The notes beneath the pieces were generated by a model, which was given only the letters and a program-made list of their open reading frames with translations, ran no database searches and was not told where the DNA came from. Shown here one piece after another: positions 1 through 4,030 of a stretch of 4,030 nucleotides of DNA. The position numbers and the translations under genes were made by a program. Each line of letters starts with the position of its first letter. The first letter of the stretch is position 1. Source of the DNA: a virus (taxonomy: Duplodnaviria > Heunggongvirae > Uroviricota > Caudoviricetes); the IMG/VR virus record IMGVR_UViG_2675903505_000004; one strand, given 5' to 3'.

Positions 1-77
1 GCCACCGTGTATTTCTGGTCAACAACCAGTTGAGCGGATTCGCGTTTAAACTCTGCGCTAAAATTTCTTTTTTTCAT
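1..77 (-). CDS. insN: IS911 OrfA (InsN-like transposase regulatory/DNA-binding subunit), N-terminal 25 codons only; continues past position 1
   Basis: Revcomp of 1-77 translates [25 protein letters not shown], which matches the N-terminus of IS911 OrfA as I remember it. Start ATG is complement of 75-77. Confidence 0.8.
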
Positions 78-113
78 TGGAGCACCTGTGTTGTTCTGAG
101 GTGAGCATATCAC

Positions 114-149
114 CTCTGTTCAGGTGGCCAAATTCAGTGTGCCACTTCA
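114..149 (-). repeat. IS911-like terminal inverted repeat (IRL), 36 bp
   Basis: Revcomp of 114-149 aligns with 3971-4006 at 24 of 36 positions, including 8/8 terminal bases TGAAGTGG and a shared GGCCACC core. This is the imperfect-IR pattern typical of IS3-family ends. Confidence 0.75.
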
Positions 150-334
150 CCCATAATGGGCTTTTAATCCTATCGTTTATTGCTTGCATAGTAGAATCTA
201 ACCATCCATCACTCATAGCTAACCCTCGGAAATCTTACATTTCTGTCTATCATAACCACTAGCATCACCTTTAGGAACCATCTGAAACGGGAGGTGTATT
301 TAGACCTTGCTAATCTTAGACAGCCGCCCGGTTC

Positions 335-598
335 ATGCATCACGTCCACACAGTGAATGGTCTGAAAACATCAATGTCGCGTAAAGGTAACTGTTACGAC
401 AACGCTCCGATGGAAAGCTTCTGGGGAACGCTGAAAAATGAGAGCCTGAGCCACTATCGTTTTAATAACCGGGATGAAGCCATCTCAGTAATACGGGAAT
501 ACATTGAGATTTTCTACAATCGTCAGCGTCGTCACTCTCGTCTGGGGAATATCTCCCCGGCAGCCTTCAGGGAAAAATATCATCAGATGGCTGCTTAA
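335..598 (+). pseudogene. IS3-family transposase (OrfB, DDE integrase core) C-terminal fragment; not IS911
   Basis: Translation contains SMSRKGNCYDNAPMESFWGTLKNE and EYIEIFYNRQRRHSRLGNISP, the conserved C-terminal block around the catalytic E of IS3-family OrfB. Only about 85 codons are present; frame is open from 314 but recognisable homology begins near 345. No upstream catalytic domain, so it is a remnant. It differs from the IS911 OrfB C-terminus as I recall it (GNCWDNSPMERFF). Confidence 0.8.
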
Positions 599-838
599 AA
601 AAGAACAAATGGTAGTGTCCGCTATTGCCAGTACACCTCACAACGCCATCCTGACAAGCGTTTTATCTTCAACGGGAATGAGATATGGAAACGTGGAGAA
701 TCAACCACAGAGTATACCCGCGCACACCAGCGAACAATCAGACGACTGCGCAGACTCATCGCCAGGAAACAGTATACAGAAAAATGGTTCAGAAAATATG
801 ACACATGGAGCGCCGGATATTACGAACTGATGGCAACA
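599..838 (+). pseudogene. Possible 3' remnant of a truncated gene (79 codons, no start codon), basic C-terminal tail
   Basis: Frame +2 is open from just after the transposase-fragment stop (596-598) to TGA 836-838 and encodes ...NGNEIWKRGESTTEYTRAHQRTIRRLRRLIARKQYTEKWFRKYDTWSAGYYELMATKPF with no internal Met until the last few codons. Protein-like composition but no family recognised. Confidence 0.2.
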
Positions 839-910
839 AAACCATTCTGACGTAAACGAAATTAACCATGACGCAATTAAATAAGGCAAGCCGAATACAT
901 CAGGAGGACC

Positions 911-1099
911 ATGAACATTTATTTCAGAATAGTTATATCACTGGCAATTATCGCATGTATTTACGGATTAATCGTTCCGGCCCTCATATCAATGAAGGAT
1001 ACGGTAGCAGTGATTTCTGGCTTTGCTCTGGCGTGTCTGACCCCGCCCTGCATTTATGCCATTTATAAGGGTCTTTCTTTTTCTAAGGATAAAAGATGA
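911..1099 (+). CDS. Small membrane protein, 62 aa, two predicted TM helices with basic C-terminus
   Basis: SD-like AGGAGG at 903-908 then ATG 911. Two hydrophobic segments (RIVISLAIIACIYGLIVPALI and VAVISGFALACLTPPCIYAIY) separated by a short polar loop. Stop TGA 1097-1099 overlaps the next gene's ATG (ATGA at 1096-1099). Confidence 0.55.
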   Translation: MNIYFRIVISLAIIACIYGLIVPALISMKDTVAVISGFALACLTPPCIYAIYKGLSFSKDKR

Positions 1100-1923
1100 A
1101 AAAAGTTATTCCTGCTTTAGCCCTTGTTCTGCTGACCACCGGACTTGTCGGTTGCGATCGCGTTGAGCCTGGTAATGTTGGCATCAAGGTAAACAAACTG
1201 GGCGACGATAAAGGCGTCGGAGAAGTGGTCGGTGTTGGGCGCTACTGGACGGGATGGAACACTGAGGTTTACATCTTCCCGACCTTCAAACAAATGAAGA
1301 CCTACGATGAGCCATTCAGCTTCCAGATGAGTGACGGTACAACCATCGGCTATCACATCGGCGTGGCCTACAAAGTTGATCCATCCAAAGTTACCACAGT
1401 CTTTCAGACCTACCGCAAAGGCGTGGACGACATTACCGACACCGACCTGCGCCAGAAGATAGCCGACGCACTCAACCGACTGGCCAGCAAAATGACCACC
1501 GACAAATTTATCGACGGCGGCAAGTCTGAGCTGCTGGATGCAGCTCTTAAAGACATTCAGGAAGAAATGACGCCCATCGGTATTCAGGTAATGAGCCTCT
1601 CATATGTGGGTAAGCCGGAGTACCCGCCTACTGTTATCGACAGCATTAATGCCAAAGTCACGGCGAACCAGAAAACCCTGCAATGCGAGCAGGAAGTAAA
1701 ACAGCGCGAAGCGGAAGCCAACATGTTGCGCGCGGAAGCTGCCGGACAGGCAGATGCGATTCGCACAAAAGCCCAGGCCGAAGCCGATGCTATTCGTTTA
1801 CGCGGTGAAGCTCTGCGCCAGAACCCAAACGTTATGGAGCTGGAAGCCATCAACAAGTGGAACGGTACACTGCCGCAATACATGACCAGCGGTGCCAACA
1901 CACCATTTATTCAGGTTAAGTAA
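1096..1923 (+). CDS. SPFH/band-7 (prohibitin/HflC-like) domain lipoprotein, 275 aa, predicted inner-membrane-anchored and periplasm-facing
   Basis: N-terminus MKKVIPALALVLLTTGLVGC is a signal peptide with lipobox LVGC; the residue after the Cys is Asp (CDRVEP), the classic inner-membrane retention signal. The body has an SPFH-like core followed by an Ala/Glu/Arg-rich coiled coil (REAEANMLRAEAAGQADAIRTKAQAEADAIRLRGEA) as in HflC/HflK/prohibitin C-termini. SD AAGGA at 1085-1089. Confidence 0.8.
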   Translation: MKKVIPALALVLLTTGLVGCDRVEPGNVGIKVNKLGDDKGVGEVVGVGRYWTGWNTEVYIFPTFKQMKTYDEPFSFQMSDGTTIGYHIGVAYKVDPSKVTTVFQTYRKGVDDITDTDLRQKIADALNRLASKMTTDKFIDGGKSELLDAALKDIQEEMTPIGIQVMSLSYVGKPEYPPTVIDSINAKVTANQKTLQCEQEVKQREAEANMLRAEAAGQADAIRTKAQAEADAIRLRGEALRQNPNVMELEAINKWNGTLPQYMTSGANTPFIQVK

Positions 1924-1930
1924 TACATAT

Positions 1931-1951
1931 GCCCGGTATTACACGCCGGGC
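1931..1951 (+). promoter_or_regulatory. GC-rich stem-loop in the SPFH to ORF6N intergenic region (6-bp stem GCCCGG/CCGGGC, 9-nt loop)
   Basis: Inverted repeat at 1931-1936 and 1946-1951 read directly from the sequence. It is not followed by a T-run, so it is more likely an RNA processing or stability element, or a partial attenuator, than an intrinsic terminator. Confidence 0.3.
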
Positions 1952-1966
1952 TGTCTGGAGATAAAA

Positions 1967-2716
1967 ATGAATACTGTAACCATCAACAACAAACAGTTTC
2001 CGGTAATCGAATATCGCGGTCAGCGTGTTGTGACGCTGGCGATGATTGATGAAGTCCACCAGCGACCGGAAGGAACCGCGCGTGCAGCATTCAACCGAAA
2101 CCGTGAGCATTTCATCAGCGGTGTGGATTATGCCGAATTAGGTGCGGACGTAATACGTACGGACCTCCCGGAAGGAACATTCTCTAAATTTGCACCATCG
2201 GGGATTGTACTTTTTGAATCAGGTTACCTGATGTTGACGAAGCCATTCAATGACGCCCTTGCCTGGCAGGTTCAGCGCGAACTGGTTAACAGCTACTTCC
2301 GCACTCGCACACCGCTAACGGAAATCGAGATGATCGCTGCGATAGCCGCCGACGCTGTTCGTCAACAGAAGCGCCTGAATCATGTGGAAGAACAGCTCGA
2401 AACAGTCACAGAAGCGGTGGAAACCATCAAACGCGGAAATATGCGCGCCGGATATGTCGGTTACCGCCAGGTGGTAGCCAAAAGTGGAATGAGTGACACC
2501 AAGTGTCGGAATCTGGTGAACGCATATCAAATTCCTACAGACACCCACGAATTCATGACTCCGGACGGTCTGTTGTCTCGCAGGGCTATCGTCGAGCTTG
2601 AGCCATTTATGGCGGCGTTCCACCAAATGATGTCAGAGGCTGACCCACGCGGCACACGCTGGTATCACCCGAAGATGGGGCTTTTCCAGGTGATCGGATG
2701 GGAGGATAAAGCATGA
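1967..2716 (+). CDS. ORF6N/KilA-N-like DNA-binding domain protein (phage antirepressor-like N-domain) with coiled-coil middle and uncharacterised C-terminal domain, 249 aa
   Basis: Start chosen at ATG 1967 (GGAG at 1957-1960, 6-nt spacer) rather than the upstream in-frame ATG 1892 that overlaps the SPFH gene. N-terminus MNTVTINNKQFPVIEYRGQRVVTLAMIDEVHQRPEGTARAAFNRNREHFISGVDYAEL fits the ORF6N/KilA-N pattern. Stop TGA 2714-2716 overlaps the next ATG 2713 (ATGA). Confidence 0.65.
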   Translation: MNTVTINNKQFPVIEYRGQRVVTLAMIDEVHQRPEGTARAAFNRNREHFISGVDYAELGADVIRTDLPEGTFSKFAPSGIVLFESGYLMLTKPFNDALAWQVQRELVNSYFRTRTPLTEIEMIAAIAADAVRQQKRLNHVEEQLETVTEAVETIKRGNMRAGYVGYRQVVAKSGMSDTKCRNLVNAYQIPTDTHEFMTPDGLLSRRAIVELEPFMAAFHQMMSEADPRGTRWYHPKMGLFQVIGWEDKA

Positions 2717-3282
2717 TCATCCAGTCAAAACTTATTCGCGCCGCTCTGGTGTGCGCTGCTAAAAACGACGTTCGTTATTACCTGAACGGTCTTCACATCA
2801 CGCCGAAACATATTGAGGCAACCAATGGTTCCGTGGCACTGCGCATGGCTCACGGCATCCGGACGAAGAAAAACATCATTGTCCAGTTCGAAGGGGGCGT
2901 CCCGGCCAAAGCCGAAACGACAGAGCTGATTTTTAGTAAAGAGCCGATCGCTGTTCATCGCGACCAGTTTCAGCGACGACTGTCCATTACCGGCATTAAA
3001 CTGGTGGACGGTTGTTTTCCGGATTTGGATCGCATCATTCCGAAAAAGTTTGACCGCTGTACTCACCCGGTGCTCCAGGCGGGTTACCTGAGTTATCCAG
3101 AGAAGATGTTTGGTCGTGAGCGTAAATTTATTCCCGTCCAGTTACGTCCCTCCGGTGACGGGCAAGCGGTCAGAATTCAGTTTGATTCCATCATCAACTC
3201 AATGTATGGCAATCCTGAATTTGTTGTGATGCCTTGTCGTGATCATGGCGATTTCAACGTGGCTCAGGAGCATCCGGAATGA
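2713..3282 (+). CDS. DNA polymerase III beta sliding clamp (DnaN) domain II-III-like protein; truncated clamp homolog lacking domain I, 189 aa
   Basis: Three blocks align with E. coli DnaN as recalled: AKNDVRYYLNGLHI vs AHQDVRYYLNGMLF (domain II), IKLVDGCFPDLDRIIPKK vs SKLVDGRFPDYRRVLPKN (domain II/III junction), and EFVVMPCR vs AYVVMPMRL (extreme C-terminus). The domain III equivalent is shortened. Own SD GGAGGA at 2701-2706. Stop TGA 3280-3282 overlaps the next ATG 3279. Confidence 0.65.
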   Translation: MIIQSKLIRAALVCAAKNDVRYYLNGLHITPKHIEATNGSVALRMAHGIRTKKNIIVQFEGGVPAKAETTELIFSKEPIAVHRDQFQRRLSITGIKLVDGCFPDLDRIIPKKFDRCTHPVLQAGYLSYPEKMFGRERKFIPVQLRPSGDGQAVRIQFDSIINSMYGNPEFVVMPCRDHGDFNVAQEHPE

Positions 3283-3401
3283 AAATCGAATACCAGGACG
3301 CCGCAGGAGGTGAATCAATGAGCTGGCCTGATGCAATCGTAACTCTGGGGATGGTATTCGCAGTAGCGTTTGTTGTGTACTCGATTTGTCGATGGGGATA
3401 A
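3279..3401 (+). CDS. Tiny single-TM membrane peptide (40 aa from ATG 3279; alternative start ATG 3318 gives 27 aa)
   Basis: Not in the supplied ORF track (too short). Translation MKIEYQDAAGGESMSWPDAIVTLGMVFAVAFVVYSICRWG, stop TAA 3399-3401. ATG 3279 is ATGA-coupled to the clamp-like gene with AGGAG at 3266-3270; the internal ATG 3318 is preceded by a strong AGGAGG at 3305-3310. Hydrophobic core LGMVFAVAFVVYSI. Confidence 0.3.
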   Translation: MKIEYQDAAGGESMSWPDAIVTLGMVFAVAFVVYSICRWG

Positions 3402-3405
3402 CCAC

Positions 3406-3648
3406 ATGTTCGCTTTGATTCAACGCGGGCAGATATACACAGACAGAGCCGGATACCCAGTAGAAATTACTCGCAGTACTGAGCACTCAGTGTTCTTTCG
3501 GAGGATGGACGGACGTACCGGGCGAGTACGCATCGGTGAATTCAGTAGCCTGTTCGAGCATATTGACCACCTGGAATATCACAAGATTCTGGCTGAAACA
3601 GAACAAGAAAAGCACCTGAAGAAATTACGCGCAATGCAAAGGAAGTAA
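3406..3648 (+). CDS. Small phage-type protein, DUF4222-like, 80 aa
   Basis: Start ATG 3406 (MFALIQRGQIYTDRAGYPVEITRSTEHSVFFRRMDGRTGRVRIGEFSSLFEHID...) preferred over the track's ATG 3370, which would overlap the upstream peptide. The spacing of YxDxxG, V.IT, V.F.RR and GEF...F resembles DUF4222 proteins from lambdoid prophages as I recall them. Stop TAA 3646-3648. Confidence 0.45.
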   Translation: MFALIQRGQIYTDRAGYPVEITRSTEHSVFFRRMDGRTGRVRIGEFSSLFEHIDHLEYHKILAETEQEKHLKKLRAMQRK

Positions 3649-3651
3649 AAA

Positions 3652-3798
3652 ATGAATAAAGCGTTTGAGCTATGGGTCCACCAGCGTTACGGCAACCACT
3701 ACGACCTGACGCGAGATGTTGACGGTTTCTACTGTCGTGAAATTGTGAAACGAATGTTTGAGGTCTGGTGCCACTGCCGTGGGCTGAGTGTTGTGTGA
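3652..3798 (+). CDS. Small Cys/His-containing protein, 48 aa
   Basis: Not in the supplied ORF track. SD AGGAAG at 3638-3643, then ATG 3652, only 3 nt after the upstream stop. Translation MNKAFELWVHQRYGNHYDLTRDVDGFYCREIVKRMFEVWCHCRGLSVV, stop TGA 3796-3798. Possible metal ligands C28, C40, H41, C42. Confidence 0.3.
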   Translation: MNKAFELWVHQRYGNHYDLTRDVDGFYCREIVKRMFEVWCHCRGLSVV

Positions 3799-3806
3799 GG
3801 TAATGC

Positions 3807-4004
3807 ATGGGCAATGTGATTCAACTGGCTCCCAATGAATGGGTTTGTGAAAGCGTTCTAATCGCAATTACCGGGCTCAAACCAGGCACAATTCTTCGGA
3901 CCCGGAAAGAATGCTGGATGGTTGGAAGAGAGTATATTCACGTATCACCAGACGGTAATCCAAAGCCTTCTGAAGTGGTCAACAAAAACTGGCCACCGAG
4001 TTAG
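3807..4004 (+). CDS. Excisionase-like (phage Xis/DUF1233-like) protein, 3' end disrupted by IS911-like insertion; chimeric ORF whose last 10 codons and stop are IS-derived
   Basis: SD GAGG at 3797-3800 then ATG 3807. Translation MGNVIQLAPNEWVCESVLIAITGLKPGTILRTRKECWMVGREYIHVSPDGNPKPS resembles excisionase-like small DNA-binding proteins of lambdoid prophages (recalled motif TGLKPGTI...RK.CWM.GREY.H..PDGNPKP). From codon 3972 onward the reading frame lies inside the IS inverted repeat (EVVNKNWPPS, then stop). Confidence 0.5.
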   Translation: MGNVIQLAPNEWVCESVLIAITGLKPGTILRTRKECWMVGREYIHVSPDGNPKPSEVVNKNWPPS

Positions 4005-4006
4005 AG
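3971..4006 (-). repeat. IS911-like terminal inverted repeat (IRR), 36 bp
   Basis: 24 of 36 positions identical to the revcomp of 114-149, including the terminal TGAAGTGG and the GGCCACC core. Confidence 0.75.
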
Positions 4007-4030
4007 TTTTTCCAGTATCGATTTTCCGAT
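3971..4030 (-). mobile_element. IS911-like (IS3 family) insertion sequence, partial: IRR end; element body continues beyond window end
   Basis: 3971-4006 reads TGAAGTGGTCAACAAAAACTGGCCACCGAGTTAGAG, the imperfect inverted-repeat partner of the element end at 114-149. The outer tip is at 3971 and the body extends rightward, so the element is in the same (minus) orientation as the left copy. Confidence 0.75.

Follow-up and report, generated by a model that had tools for sequence, protein, structure and literature searches.

Eight tightly packed early genes of a decayed lambdoid prophage: evidence for separately exchangeable accessory cassettes

Background

Does a tightly packed run of genes next to a phage excisionase gene constitute one system, or is it a row of cargo that happens to be transcribed together? 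The question is raised by a 4,030-nucleotide stretch of Caudoviricetes DNA (IMG/VR record IMGVR_UViG_2675903505_000004; 'the window' below means this whole stretch at its full length), in which eight plus-strand open reading frames (ORFs) lie between positions 911 and 4,004. The original prediction, made from the letters alone, saw in them a single prophage module laid out like a sensor/effector abortive-infection system. We consider it highly probable that the block is a chain of separately exchangeable accessory cassettes in a decayed lambdoid prophage at yecE, bounded by insertion sequence (IS) elements in Shigella flexneri. The anatomy, homologies, fold, mosaic distribution and decay of the block are described in the following, and biochemical roles are proposed for its products.

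Re-reading of the sequence and of the ORF listing gave the eight ORFs at the positions originally assigned; they are named g1 to g7 and xis' here. The domain calls made for them agreed with the Pfam matches, the DnaN-like call for g4 being weak in Pfam and backed by its predicted fold. Seven of the eight proteins fall into existing phage families of PHROGs; only the 40-amino-acid product of g5 (3279-3401) has neither a PHROG nor a Pfam family. The genes had been described as uncharacterised, and the libraries and papers searched gave no experimentally established function for any of them.

Gene order and genome counts

For each of three anchors (SPFH, g4 and ORF6N) 80 IMG/VR loci were fetched, plus-strand ORFs were called and clustered, and immediate neighbours were counted. 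The SPFH-anchored loci were all at least 96% identical and the ORF6N-anchored loci at least 84% identical. About 270 related loci together with 5,426 complete E. coli genomes were used as a comparison set.

The counts divide the block into parts that hold together and junctions that do not. The small membrane protein gene g1 stood directly 5' of the SPFH gene g2 in 80/80 loci, and the gene 3' of SPFH varied: a DUF5406 gene in 55 of the 80, the ORF6N gene g3 in 18, and another gene in 6 loci. Following ORF6N, the DnaN homologue g4 came next in 21 of the 70 loci with room for it, the remaining ORF6N loci carrying one of four unrelated genes of 123, 112, 72 or 87 amino acids, the last of them PrtN-like. 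Seen from g4, an ORF6N-family gene was directly upstream in 72 of 77 IMG/VR loci, and the downstream gene was a 74-amino-acid gene (cluster c13) in 54 loci and g5 in 12. The small genes g6 and g7 followed each other in 72/72 loci; g7 was followed by xis in 108 of 140 loci and by int in 25 of 140.

The same was seen in whole genomes. At a cover of at least 80%, the g1-g2 pair was found in 218, g3 in 65, g4 in 60 and the whole block in 51 of the E. coli genomes. Counting any match, the pair occurs in 716/5,426 (about 13%), nearly half of the places being on phage-plasmids. Individual phages carry different subsets: phiP27 and Stx2 phages have the SPFH pair without ORF6N or g4, phi467 has ORF6N without SPFH or g4, Fraca has SPFH and ORF6N without g4, and P88 (P2-like), RCS47 (P1-like) and Cyrano (SSU5-like) have the SPFH pair only.

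A conserved operon-level module, i.e. the same genes in the same order across divergent genomes, was not found in these sets. The claim of one eight-gene module was checked through gene-order conservation and fails at the level of cassettes, as judged from the neighbour counts and from 51 genomes with the whole block versus 218-716 with the SPFH pair. Since both the neighbour counts and the named phages show shuffling, the eight genes are best described as one lineage's combination of cassettes and not as a conserved system. We propose that the cassettes would share one transcript only because phage early operons are packed in this way.

A first table of presence and absence made with tblastn was discarded. 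It overstated the linkage of SPFH and ORF6N because the C-terminal domain of g3 also occurs in a second gene, which lies on the opposite strand, and it was replaced by the adjacency counts on clustered ORFs.

Three points weigh against a description in terms of separate cassettes. The whole block is present in 51 of the 60 E. coli genomes that have g4, i.e. it is stable in one prophage lineage. Functional interplay between cassettes may exist beyond what genomics alone can show. Finally, the loci are redundant, IMG/VR containing many near-identical prophages, so that fewer independent events lie behind the adjacency counts than these suggest.

Place in the lambdoid early operon

The block had been assigned to the accessory slot just 5' of xis-int, at the end of a lambdoid leftward early operon, and this is where it is seen in an intact relative. 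E. coli 10671 (locus L001) carries the same genes at 94% identity in an intact prophage, within a tight plus-strand run that leads from two helix-turn-helix regulators (the repressor region) to xis, int and yecE, the helicase, primase-like and Q genes being divergent on the opposite strand. Such an early-left layout, on the same strand as and downstream of the immunity regulators and ending with xis-int at the attachment site, was also found in Fraca, phi467 and phiP27. Window 641-3970 is thus read as the promoter-distal end of a leftward early operon, presumably of the lambda pL type. Position 911 is no operon start, as a truncated phage ORF (641-850) precedes it.

The original prediction relied much on the close spacing of the genes. 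The ATGA overlaps at 1096-1099, 2713-2716 and 3279-3282 are present in the sequence, the remaining intergenic gaps are 4, 3 and 8 nt besides a 43-bp spacer at 1924-1966, and a Shine-Dalgarno-like motif lies ahead of each of the eight starts. A fixed stoichiometry does not follow, overlaps and tiny gaps being the norm in phage early operons. Co-directional genes with minimal gaps are found equally among the flanking early genes of the intact relative and do not discriminate: in E. coli 10671 the same packing extends through about 10 more plus-strand genes upstream, back to the repressor region, and the count of eight is therefore an accident of where the deletion ends. A gene for a 'ParE family toxin-like protein' (L001 11604-11822) lies a few genes upstream in the same operon of E. 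coli 10671 and is deleted in the window.

The spacer at 1924-1966 was said to contain a hairpin. Spacer and stem are both there, the latter as a 7-bp GC-rich stem on the plus strand at 1931-1951, between g2 and g3, and only its significance is not borne out: the folding energy of -14.4 kcal/mol corresponds to a z-score of -1.65 and was equalled in 11 of 200 shuffles. A role as terminator or regulatory RNA was rejected, as there is no T tract, the stem is not significant against shuffles, and Rfam returned nothing credible for the window or the hairpin.

A crude consensus scan found 0 sigma70-like promoters in the window, with 4.6 expected. With no such promoter inside the block, nothing suggests the behaviour of a moron expressed in the lysogen; that the scan is a crude consensus test counts against our reading here.

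These observations bear directly on the proposal that the eight genes form one co-translated defence or abortive-infection system, with g1 and g2 as membrane effector and the ORF6N and clamp-like proteins as nucleic-acid sensors. Its appeal lies in the common strand and near-zero spacing, in the accessory slot adjoining xis, and in the whole block being about 94% identical in 51 E. coli genomes. It must be set against this that the cassettes assort independently, that the genes upstream are packed in the same way, that no promoter-like site for expression in the lysogen was found inside the block, and that one of the 'genes' is a recombination joint (g5) and another a truncated xis. Furthermore, a search of the eight proteins against PADLOC-DB v2 at E<=0.1 gave 0 families, and in the literature searched no paper links SPFH proteins to anti-phage defence or exclusion. 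We regard a single defence system as extremely improbable and read the block as a chain of exchangeable cassettes in what follows.

The SPFH pair

Cassette A consists of g1 (911-1099), which encodes 62 amino acids with two hydrophobic spans (phrog_1130 'membrane protein', E=7e-24), and g2 (1096-1923), which encodes a 275-amino-acid SPFH/Band-7 lipoprotein (Band_7 E=6e-31; phrog_200 'lipoprotein', E=6e-114). The Band_7 match spans residues 22-208 and reaches 108.2 bits, the Pfam cut-off being 23.6, which places g2 in the SPFH superfamily. From the N-terminus, g2 has a signal peptide, the lipobox LVGC with Asp at position +2, the SPFH domain and an Ala/Glu-rich helical region. Across five phage lineages the lipobox reads L[VT]GC-D, with an invariant Cys-Asp. 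According to the +2 rule of E. coli, Asp at this position leads to Lol avoidance and the lipoprotein is retained in the inner membrane. We infer that g2 is a predicted inner-membrane lipoprotein with its body in the periplasm, i.e. with the topology of HflK/C; since Asp at +2 would hold it in the inner membrane, the SPFH domain would face the periplasm.

A small gene with two transmembrane spans precedes SPFH in every lineage examined, namely Hendrixvirinae, P2-like, P1-like and SSU5-like phages. Counterparts of g1 in Fraca, P88 and Cyrano are 66%, 19% and 31% identical to g1, with ten invariant positions. The mature SPFH protein is 79-92% identical across these phage lineages. DNA homology to the P1-like, P2-like and SSU5-like SPFH copies starts just past the signal peptide (query 505-517; window about 1144-1156), which argues for a recombination joint inside the SPFH gene; the small upstream gene and the signal peptide are lineage-specific. 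In phage RCS47 (locus L255) an unannotated 78-amino-acid ORF with two transmembrane spans, at 2231-2467, overlaps the start of the SPFH gene and is the g1 counterpart. The RCS47 pair is located where P1 itself presumably has other cargo, between the tRNA genes and ban.

By analogy with HflK/C, we propose that g2 would oligomerise into a cage at the periplasmic side of the inner membrane, for which g1 would serve as anchor or client. Cassette A would most likely modulate a membrane process relevant to temperate phages, candidate targets being the FtsH-dependent turnover of CII/Xis-type proteins or the entry of superinfecting DNA. A phage-made, periplasm-facing SPFH cage could in this way bear on FtsH-controlled lysogeny decisions or on the exclusion of superinfecting DNA. 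Literature searches returned no functional study of the g1-SPFH pair.

Alternatively, cassette A on its own might be a self-contained moron for superinfection exclusion (Sie) or membrane protection, carried by many temperate coliphages. Strict conservation of the pair in four unrelated temperate phage lineages, in different genomic slots, speaks for this, and so do its occurrence in 716/5,426 E. coli genomes, with about half of the places on phage-plasmids, and the envelope location suggested by the lipobox; Sie proteins of the inner membrane, such as P22 SieA, form an established class (PMC10883804). However, no promoter-like site lies 5' of g1 in the window, neither a PADLOC match nor an experimental report turned up in the searches made, and a regulatory role of the FtsH/HflKC type fits the same data. 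We hold a stand-alone exclusion moron to be unlikely, and prefer to see cassette A as one of the exchangeable members of the chain, with a possible role at the membrane as outlined above.

The ORF6N protein

Cassette B consists of g3 and g4, normally together with the 74-amino-acid gene. The first of these, g3 (1967-2716), encodes a 249-amino-acid ORF6N (KilA-N-type) protein. Its ORF6N domain at residues 13-92 scores 47.6 bits (gathering threshold 27.8; E=2e-12), and the protein matches phrog_1726 'anti-repressor' (E=1e-69). A long predicted helix links the ORF6N domain to a C-terminal domain (residues about 116-249), for which no Pfam family was found, a separate scan at E<=10 giving only noise. 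The family phrog_6610 matches residues 122-247. An AlphaFold model based on a 24-sequence alignment had a predicted local distance difference test score (pLDDT) of 44 and was unusable, the reason being that the available homologues are 81-95% identical.

The C-terminal domain is 50% identical to a Photorhabdus protein with a pRha N-terminus. At locus L074 (2228-1830, minus strand) and similar loci, in which no ORF6N gene lies beside SPFH, an opposite-strand gene was found to carry a domain 76% identical to it. This gene indicates that the C-terminal domain of g3 has been shuffled among N-terminal modules and operons.

The C-terminal stretch HPKMGLFQ was considered as a clamp-binding motif for the g4 product and rejected, being equally conserved where no g4 relative is a neighbour. 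In a distant relative the motif reads W-x-HP-x-F-G-x-F, and it looks like a structural motif. Literature searches on ORF6N in prophages gave nothing functional on these genes.

The mini-beta protein

The 189-amino-acid product of g4 (2713-3282) is identified as a DnaN homologue by fold and profile and belongs to phrog_3007 (E=6e-65); we call it mini-beta. An alignment of 35 relatives was used for an AlphaFold model. The model has a pLDDT of 91.8, and in a Foldseek search of the PDB its top 50 matches were all DnaN (probability 1.0, E about 1e-6), which assigns the clamp fold. Pfam gave a sub-threshold match to the central domain of DnaN only. The family profile aligned to E. coli beta with E=2.5e-17, residues 5-158 of g4 corresponding to beta 136-293, and the C-terminal VVMPCR aligns to beta 360-365. 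Because the alignment covers these two regions, g4 consists of domain II together with the first half and the last strand of domain III, and has no domain I. In the model, the half domain III is alpha-beta-beta-alpha-beta (residues about 120-175), and domain II is complete except for one helix. Without domain I and with half of domain III, the canonical head-to-tail dimer is impossible for g4.

Conservation is concentrated at positions that line up with particular beta residues. The invariant R21, Y22, Y23 and L24 align to beta R152, Y153, Y154 and L155; T37 and G39 (invariant) and H40 (near-invariant) to T172, G174 and H175; P103 (invariant) and R107 (near-invariant) to P242 and R246; and V172, M173 and P174 (near-invariant) and R176 (invariant) to V361, M362, P363 and R365. 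In published clamp-peptide structures, these beta residues line the partner-binding cleft. Within the g4 family, conservation at the aligned cleft positions is complete or at least 90%. K131 and F133 of g4 fall at the position of the I272/L273 interface of beta. At codon 40 (2830-2832) the g4 of the window encodes Ser in place of the His found in at least 90% of the family, the aligned residue of E. coli beta being His175; this may reflect relaxed constraint in a prophage remnant.

At least 2,531 clusters (50% identity) match this large family at E<=1e-10; among the best 150, most matches are full-length, at about 170-215 amino acids. Ten of ten sampled distant relatives belong to phrog_3007 and have the DnaN fold and motifs. 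Structural twins in BFVD have 180-210 amino acids at a template modelling score of about 0.8, and the top viral matches have 180-250 amino acids, 'DNA polymerase III beta subunit' being the annotation of several. The label 'RusA-like Holliday junction resolvase' attached to phrog_3007 is contradicted by the predicted fold and looks wrong. Half-size DnaN homologues that keep residues of the putative cleft are labelled as a RusA-like resolvase in one major phage database, and relabelling would be useful for phage annotation; knowledge of the partners that they bind would be of use to replisome biology. A literature search on short DnaN-like phage proteins found no functional study.

An ORF6N-type gene is found directly upstream of mini-beta or one gene away in Citrobacter, Serratia, Xenorhabdus and Providencia, the ORF6N domain of some of these neighbours being only 23-30% identical, and in Photorhabdus the gene in which pRha is fused to the C-terminal domain of g3 overlaps mini-beta by 4 nt. 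The link between mini-beta and the ORF6N/Rha C-terminal domain may be functional. We propose that mini-beta would not encircle DNA in the way of a canonical dimer but would bind partners with clamp-binding motifs, or host beta, and would act on replication early in lytic growth. Taken further, ORF6N/Rha and mini-beta might be a two-part early-lytic device, in which the cleft or interface captures partners of the host clamp or caps host beta at DNA sites chosen by ORF6N/Rha. We put this forward as a speculation that is unlikely to be right; if true, it would be a so far undescribed route by which temperate phages hijack or shut off the host replisome, and the large phrog_3007 family with its mistaken label would gain a function.

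Several points stand against these proposals for mini-beta. The cleft residues are the most conserved residues of DnaN in general, and beta 294-345, which forms part of subsite 2, is deleted in g4. Four distant mini-beta genes (about 30% identity, on environmental phage contigs) have no ORF6N neighbour and lie among replication and methylase genes. The adjacency of ORF6N and mini-beta could reflect shared descent in enterobacterial lambdoids and not function.

Could mini-beta instead be a genuine processivity clamp, i.e. a protomer of two domains that forms trimers in the manner of PCNA or T4 gp45 for phage DNA replication or recombination, ORF6N being an unrelated neighbour? The high-confidence DnaN fold would fit, as would the 180-250-amino-acid structural twins annotated 'DNA polymerase III beta subunit' in many phages and the distant members found near DnaB, primase and methylase genes. 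The protein itself is poorly suited, its second domain being only half a clamp domain and its domain II lacking one helix; no polymerase or clamp loader of their own was seen in the lambdoid prophage regions inspected, and the gene is dispensable, most phages with the same ORF6N gene having no mini-beta. A genuine clamp is thereby very doubtful, and partner binding by a clamp-like protein is the role we would assign to mini-beta in preference.

In locus L231 and 17 other loci (cluster c46), mini-beta is split and a separate 58-amino-acid ORF corresponds to its C-terminus. The gene is evidently a pseudogene in part of the lineage.

Small genes next to xis

The first 21 nt of g5 (7 codons, including the ATGA overlap) are identical to the start of the 74-amino-acid gene c13, after which the two diverge. 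Going by this pattern, g5 is a recombination joint, its first 7 codons being a relic of c13, and because nothing beyond the first 21 nt is shared, the third ATGA overlap (3279-3282) is probably a recombination scar. The sequence after the point of divergence contains AGGAGG at 3304-3309 and an ATG at 3319, and the product of g5 is probably a 27-amino-acid hydrophobic peptide that starts at this ATG. Only 4 alleles of g5 were available, too few for a coding test based on substitution patterns.

The next two genes encode an 80-amino-acid DUF4222 protein (g6, 3406-3648; DUF4222 E=1e-15; phrog_285, E=1e-34) and a 48-amino-acid protein whose gene is usually directly 5' of xis (g7, 3652-3798; phrog_3871, E=9e-35). 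By family assignment, g6 and g7 are established families travelling with xis (cassette C).

Insertion sequence scars and decay in Shigella flexneri

The last ORF of the block had been called excisionase-like. Its identity is confirmed by DUF1233 (E=7e-23) and by the excisionase family phrog_539, and what does not hold is that it is an intact xis. The truncated gene xis' occupies 3807-3970 and is cut at 3970/3971, at codon 55, by IS911; the frame continues to 4004 inside the element, giving an ORF of 65 amino acids whose last 10 codons and stop are IS911-derived. It matches DUF1233 profile positions 1-55 of 70, the intact excisionases of relatives having 78 amino acids. As homology to these ends at 3970, the eighth ORF is a truncated xis read into IS911. 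Both xis and int are intact in relatives, and int is absent from the S. flexneri source genomes.

The right end of IS911 (TGAAGTGGTCAACAAAAACTGGCCACC...) lies on the minus strand at 3971-4030, in the same orientation as a second copy at 1-151. It equals L006 12005-12064, which is followed by a minus-strand transposase gene with an rve domain. The copy at 1-151 is an IS911 left end, also on the minus strand, with the orfA start codon at 77 reading leftwards and the terminal inverted repeat ending at 151. It matches L006 13105-13255, a region with called HTH_Tnp_1 and rve genes, at 100% identity, and the RefSeq feature beneath the match is 'IS3-like element IS911 family transposase'. Positions 152-357 are DNA from the yecE/DUF72 side, which lies to the right of IS911 in reference S. 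flexneri genomes and is not collinear with the rest of the window. A 3' fragment of IS600 follows on the plus strand at 358-640, consisting of the C-terminal part of the transposase with a stop at 598 and the IS end at 640; the call is based on rve_3 and rve_2 matches and on the RefSeq feature 'IS3-like element IS600 family transposase'. Prophage homology begins at 640/641 with the plus-strand remnant at 641-850, which is the 3' part of a phage gene of 130 amino acids when intact, cut by IS600. The remnant aligns to the L001 gene at 11819-12211 and recurs as cluster g0 in many related loci.

The exact g3 protein is encoded in S. flexneri chromosomes including CP026765, CP026788 and CP012735; S. 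flexneri SFBU1023 was also retrieved by a genome scan. At the yecE (DUF72) locus of S. flexneri, IS600 and IS911 flank the block, and IS elements have taken the place of the immunity and replication regions. Loci L005 and L010 (8347-9044) of S. flexneri have an IS1 inside g1 and a xis remnant that is no longer called; the IS1 insertion is ongoing decay of the same prophage remnant.

It may be asked whether the block in S. flexneri is simply decaying junk, an untranscribed relic that began to decay too recently to have lost its ORFs. The insertions of IS600, IS911 and IS1, the loss of int and of the promoter-proximal region, and the truncated xis agree with this, as do the Ser that replaces the family-conserved cleft His in g4 and the frameshifted clamp gene in some related loci. 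On the other hand, none of the seven complete ORFs is disrupted, and 2,783 blocks of the assembly collection contain the exact ORF6N protein. We judge the matter evenly balanced; it concerns the S. flexneri copy only, and what the genes do in intact phages is a separate matter.

The joint at 357/358 stands apart from the rest of the window. No retrieved genome is collinear across it: window 1-357 equals L006 13105-13461 and window 358-4030 equals L006 8392-12064, and in all S. flexneri and E. coli loci the DNA of window 1-357 lies further right than window 4030, at a distance of about 1 kb that takes in one IS911. At the joint, yecE-side DNA meets the middle of IS600 without any homology between the two, and a 39-mer across it was not found in IMG/VR or in JGI metagenome contigs. 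A tandem duplication of 5,070 bp could have produced it as a novel joint; a circular form or an artefact could also account for it.

The locus as a whole is ordinary, being decayed prophage cargo present in a great many public S. flexneri assemblies. The value of a follow-up is limited to two conserved pairs, SPFH with its two-transmembrane partner and ORF6N/Rha with mini-beta, both of them real sub-units of the block.

Comparison with known systems

Measured against the repressor region, xis, int and the attachment site, the block has the same place and orientation as the ea/b-region side of lambda. The accessory region of lambda is likewise made up of small, tightly packed, non-essential and mosaic genes, and relatives of the present prophage have Ea22-like, DUF551 and DUF5406 alternatives. 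In contrast to lambda, the window has none of lambda's own ea, exo-bet-gam or kil genes; its gene content is specific to the yecE-integrating lineage and is IS-truncated here.

In common with HflK/HflC and bacterial SPFH-NfeD operons, g2 has a helical region after its Band_7/SPFH domain, most of the protein is predicted to lie in the periplasm, and its gene adjoins that of a small membrane protein. HflK is the best sequence match of g2 among solved structures, and HflC and HflK are its best NCBIfam matches, both weak and far below threshold. In figures, g2 scores 23.9 bits against TIGR01932 (cut-off 134.4) and 22.3 bits against TIGR01933 (cut-off 159.4) and does not belong to the HflK/C equivalogs. 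It also differs from HflK/C in having a lipid anchor instead of a transmembrane helix, and in being a single SPFH gene with no K/C pair. SPFH-NfeD operons are different as well, the partner of g2 being a 62-amino-acid hairpin protein with no NfeD match and only a sub-threshold match to DUF6320.

With the ORF6N/KilA-N/Rha regulators g3 shares the N-terminal domain, the best PHROGs, which are all 'anti-repressor', and the modular exchange of N-terminal and C-terminal domains. Unlike the Ant anti-repressors, g3 has no match to ANT (PF03374), anti-repressor activity being an annotation only.

Compared with DnaN, the g4 family keeps the motifs RYYLNG, T-x-G-H, FPD..R..P and VVMP-x-R of the putative cleft, the g4 of the window having Ser at the His position of T-x-G-H. 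It has 189 amino acids versus 366, and with 21.2 bits against TIGR00663 (cut-off 137.65) it falls outside the DnaN equivalog. Its closest counterparts are the short phage 'DNA polymerase III beta'-like proteins of phrog_3007: the match is full-length (E=5.9e-65, g4 residues 1-179 on profile positions 3-188 of 190), and nothing separates g4 from this family.

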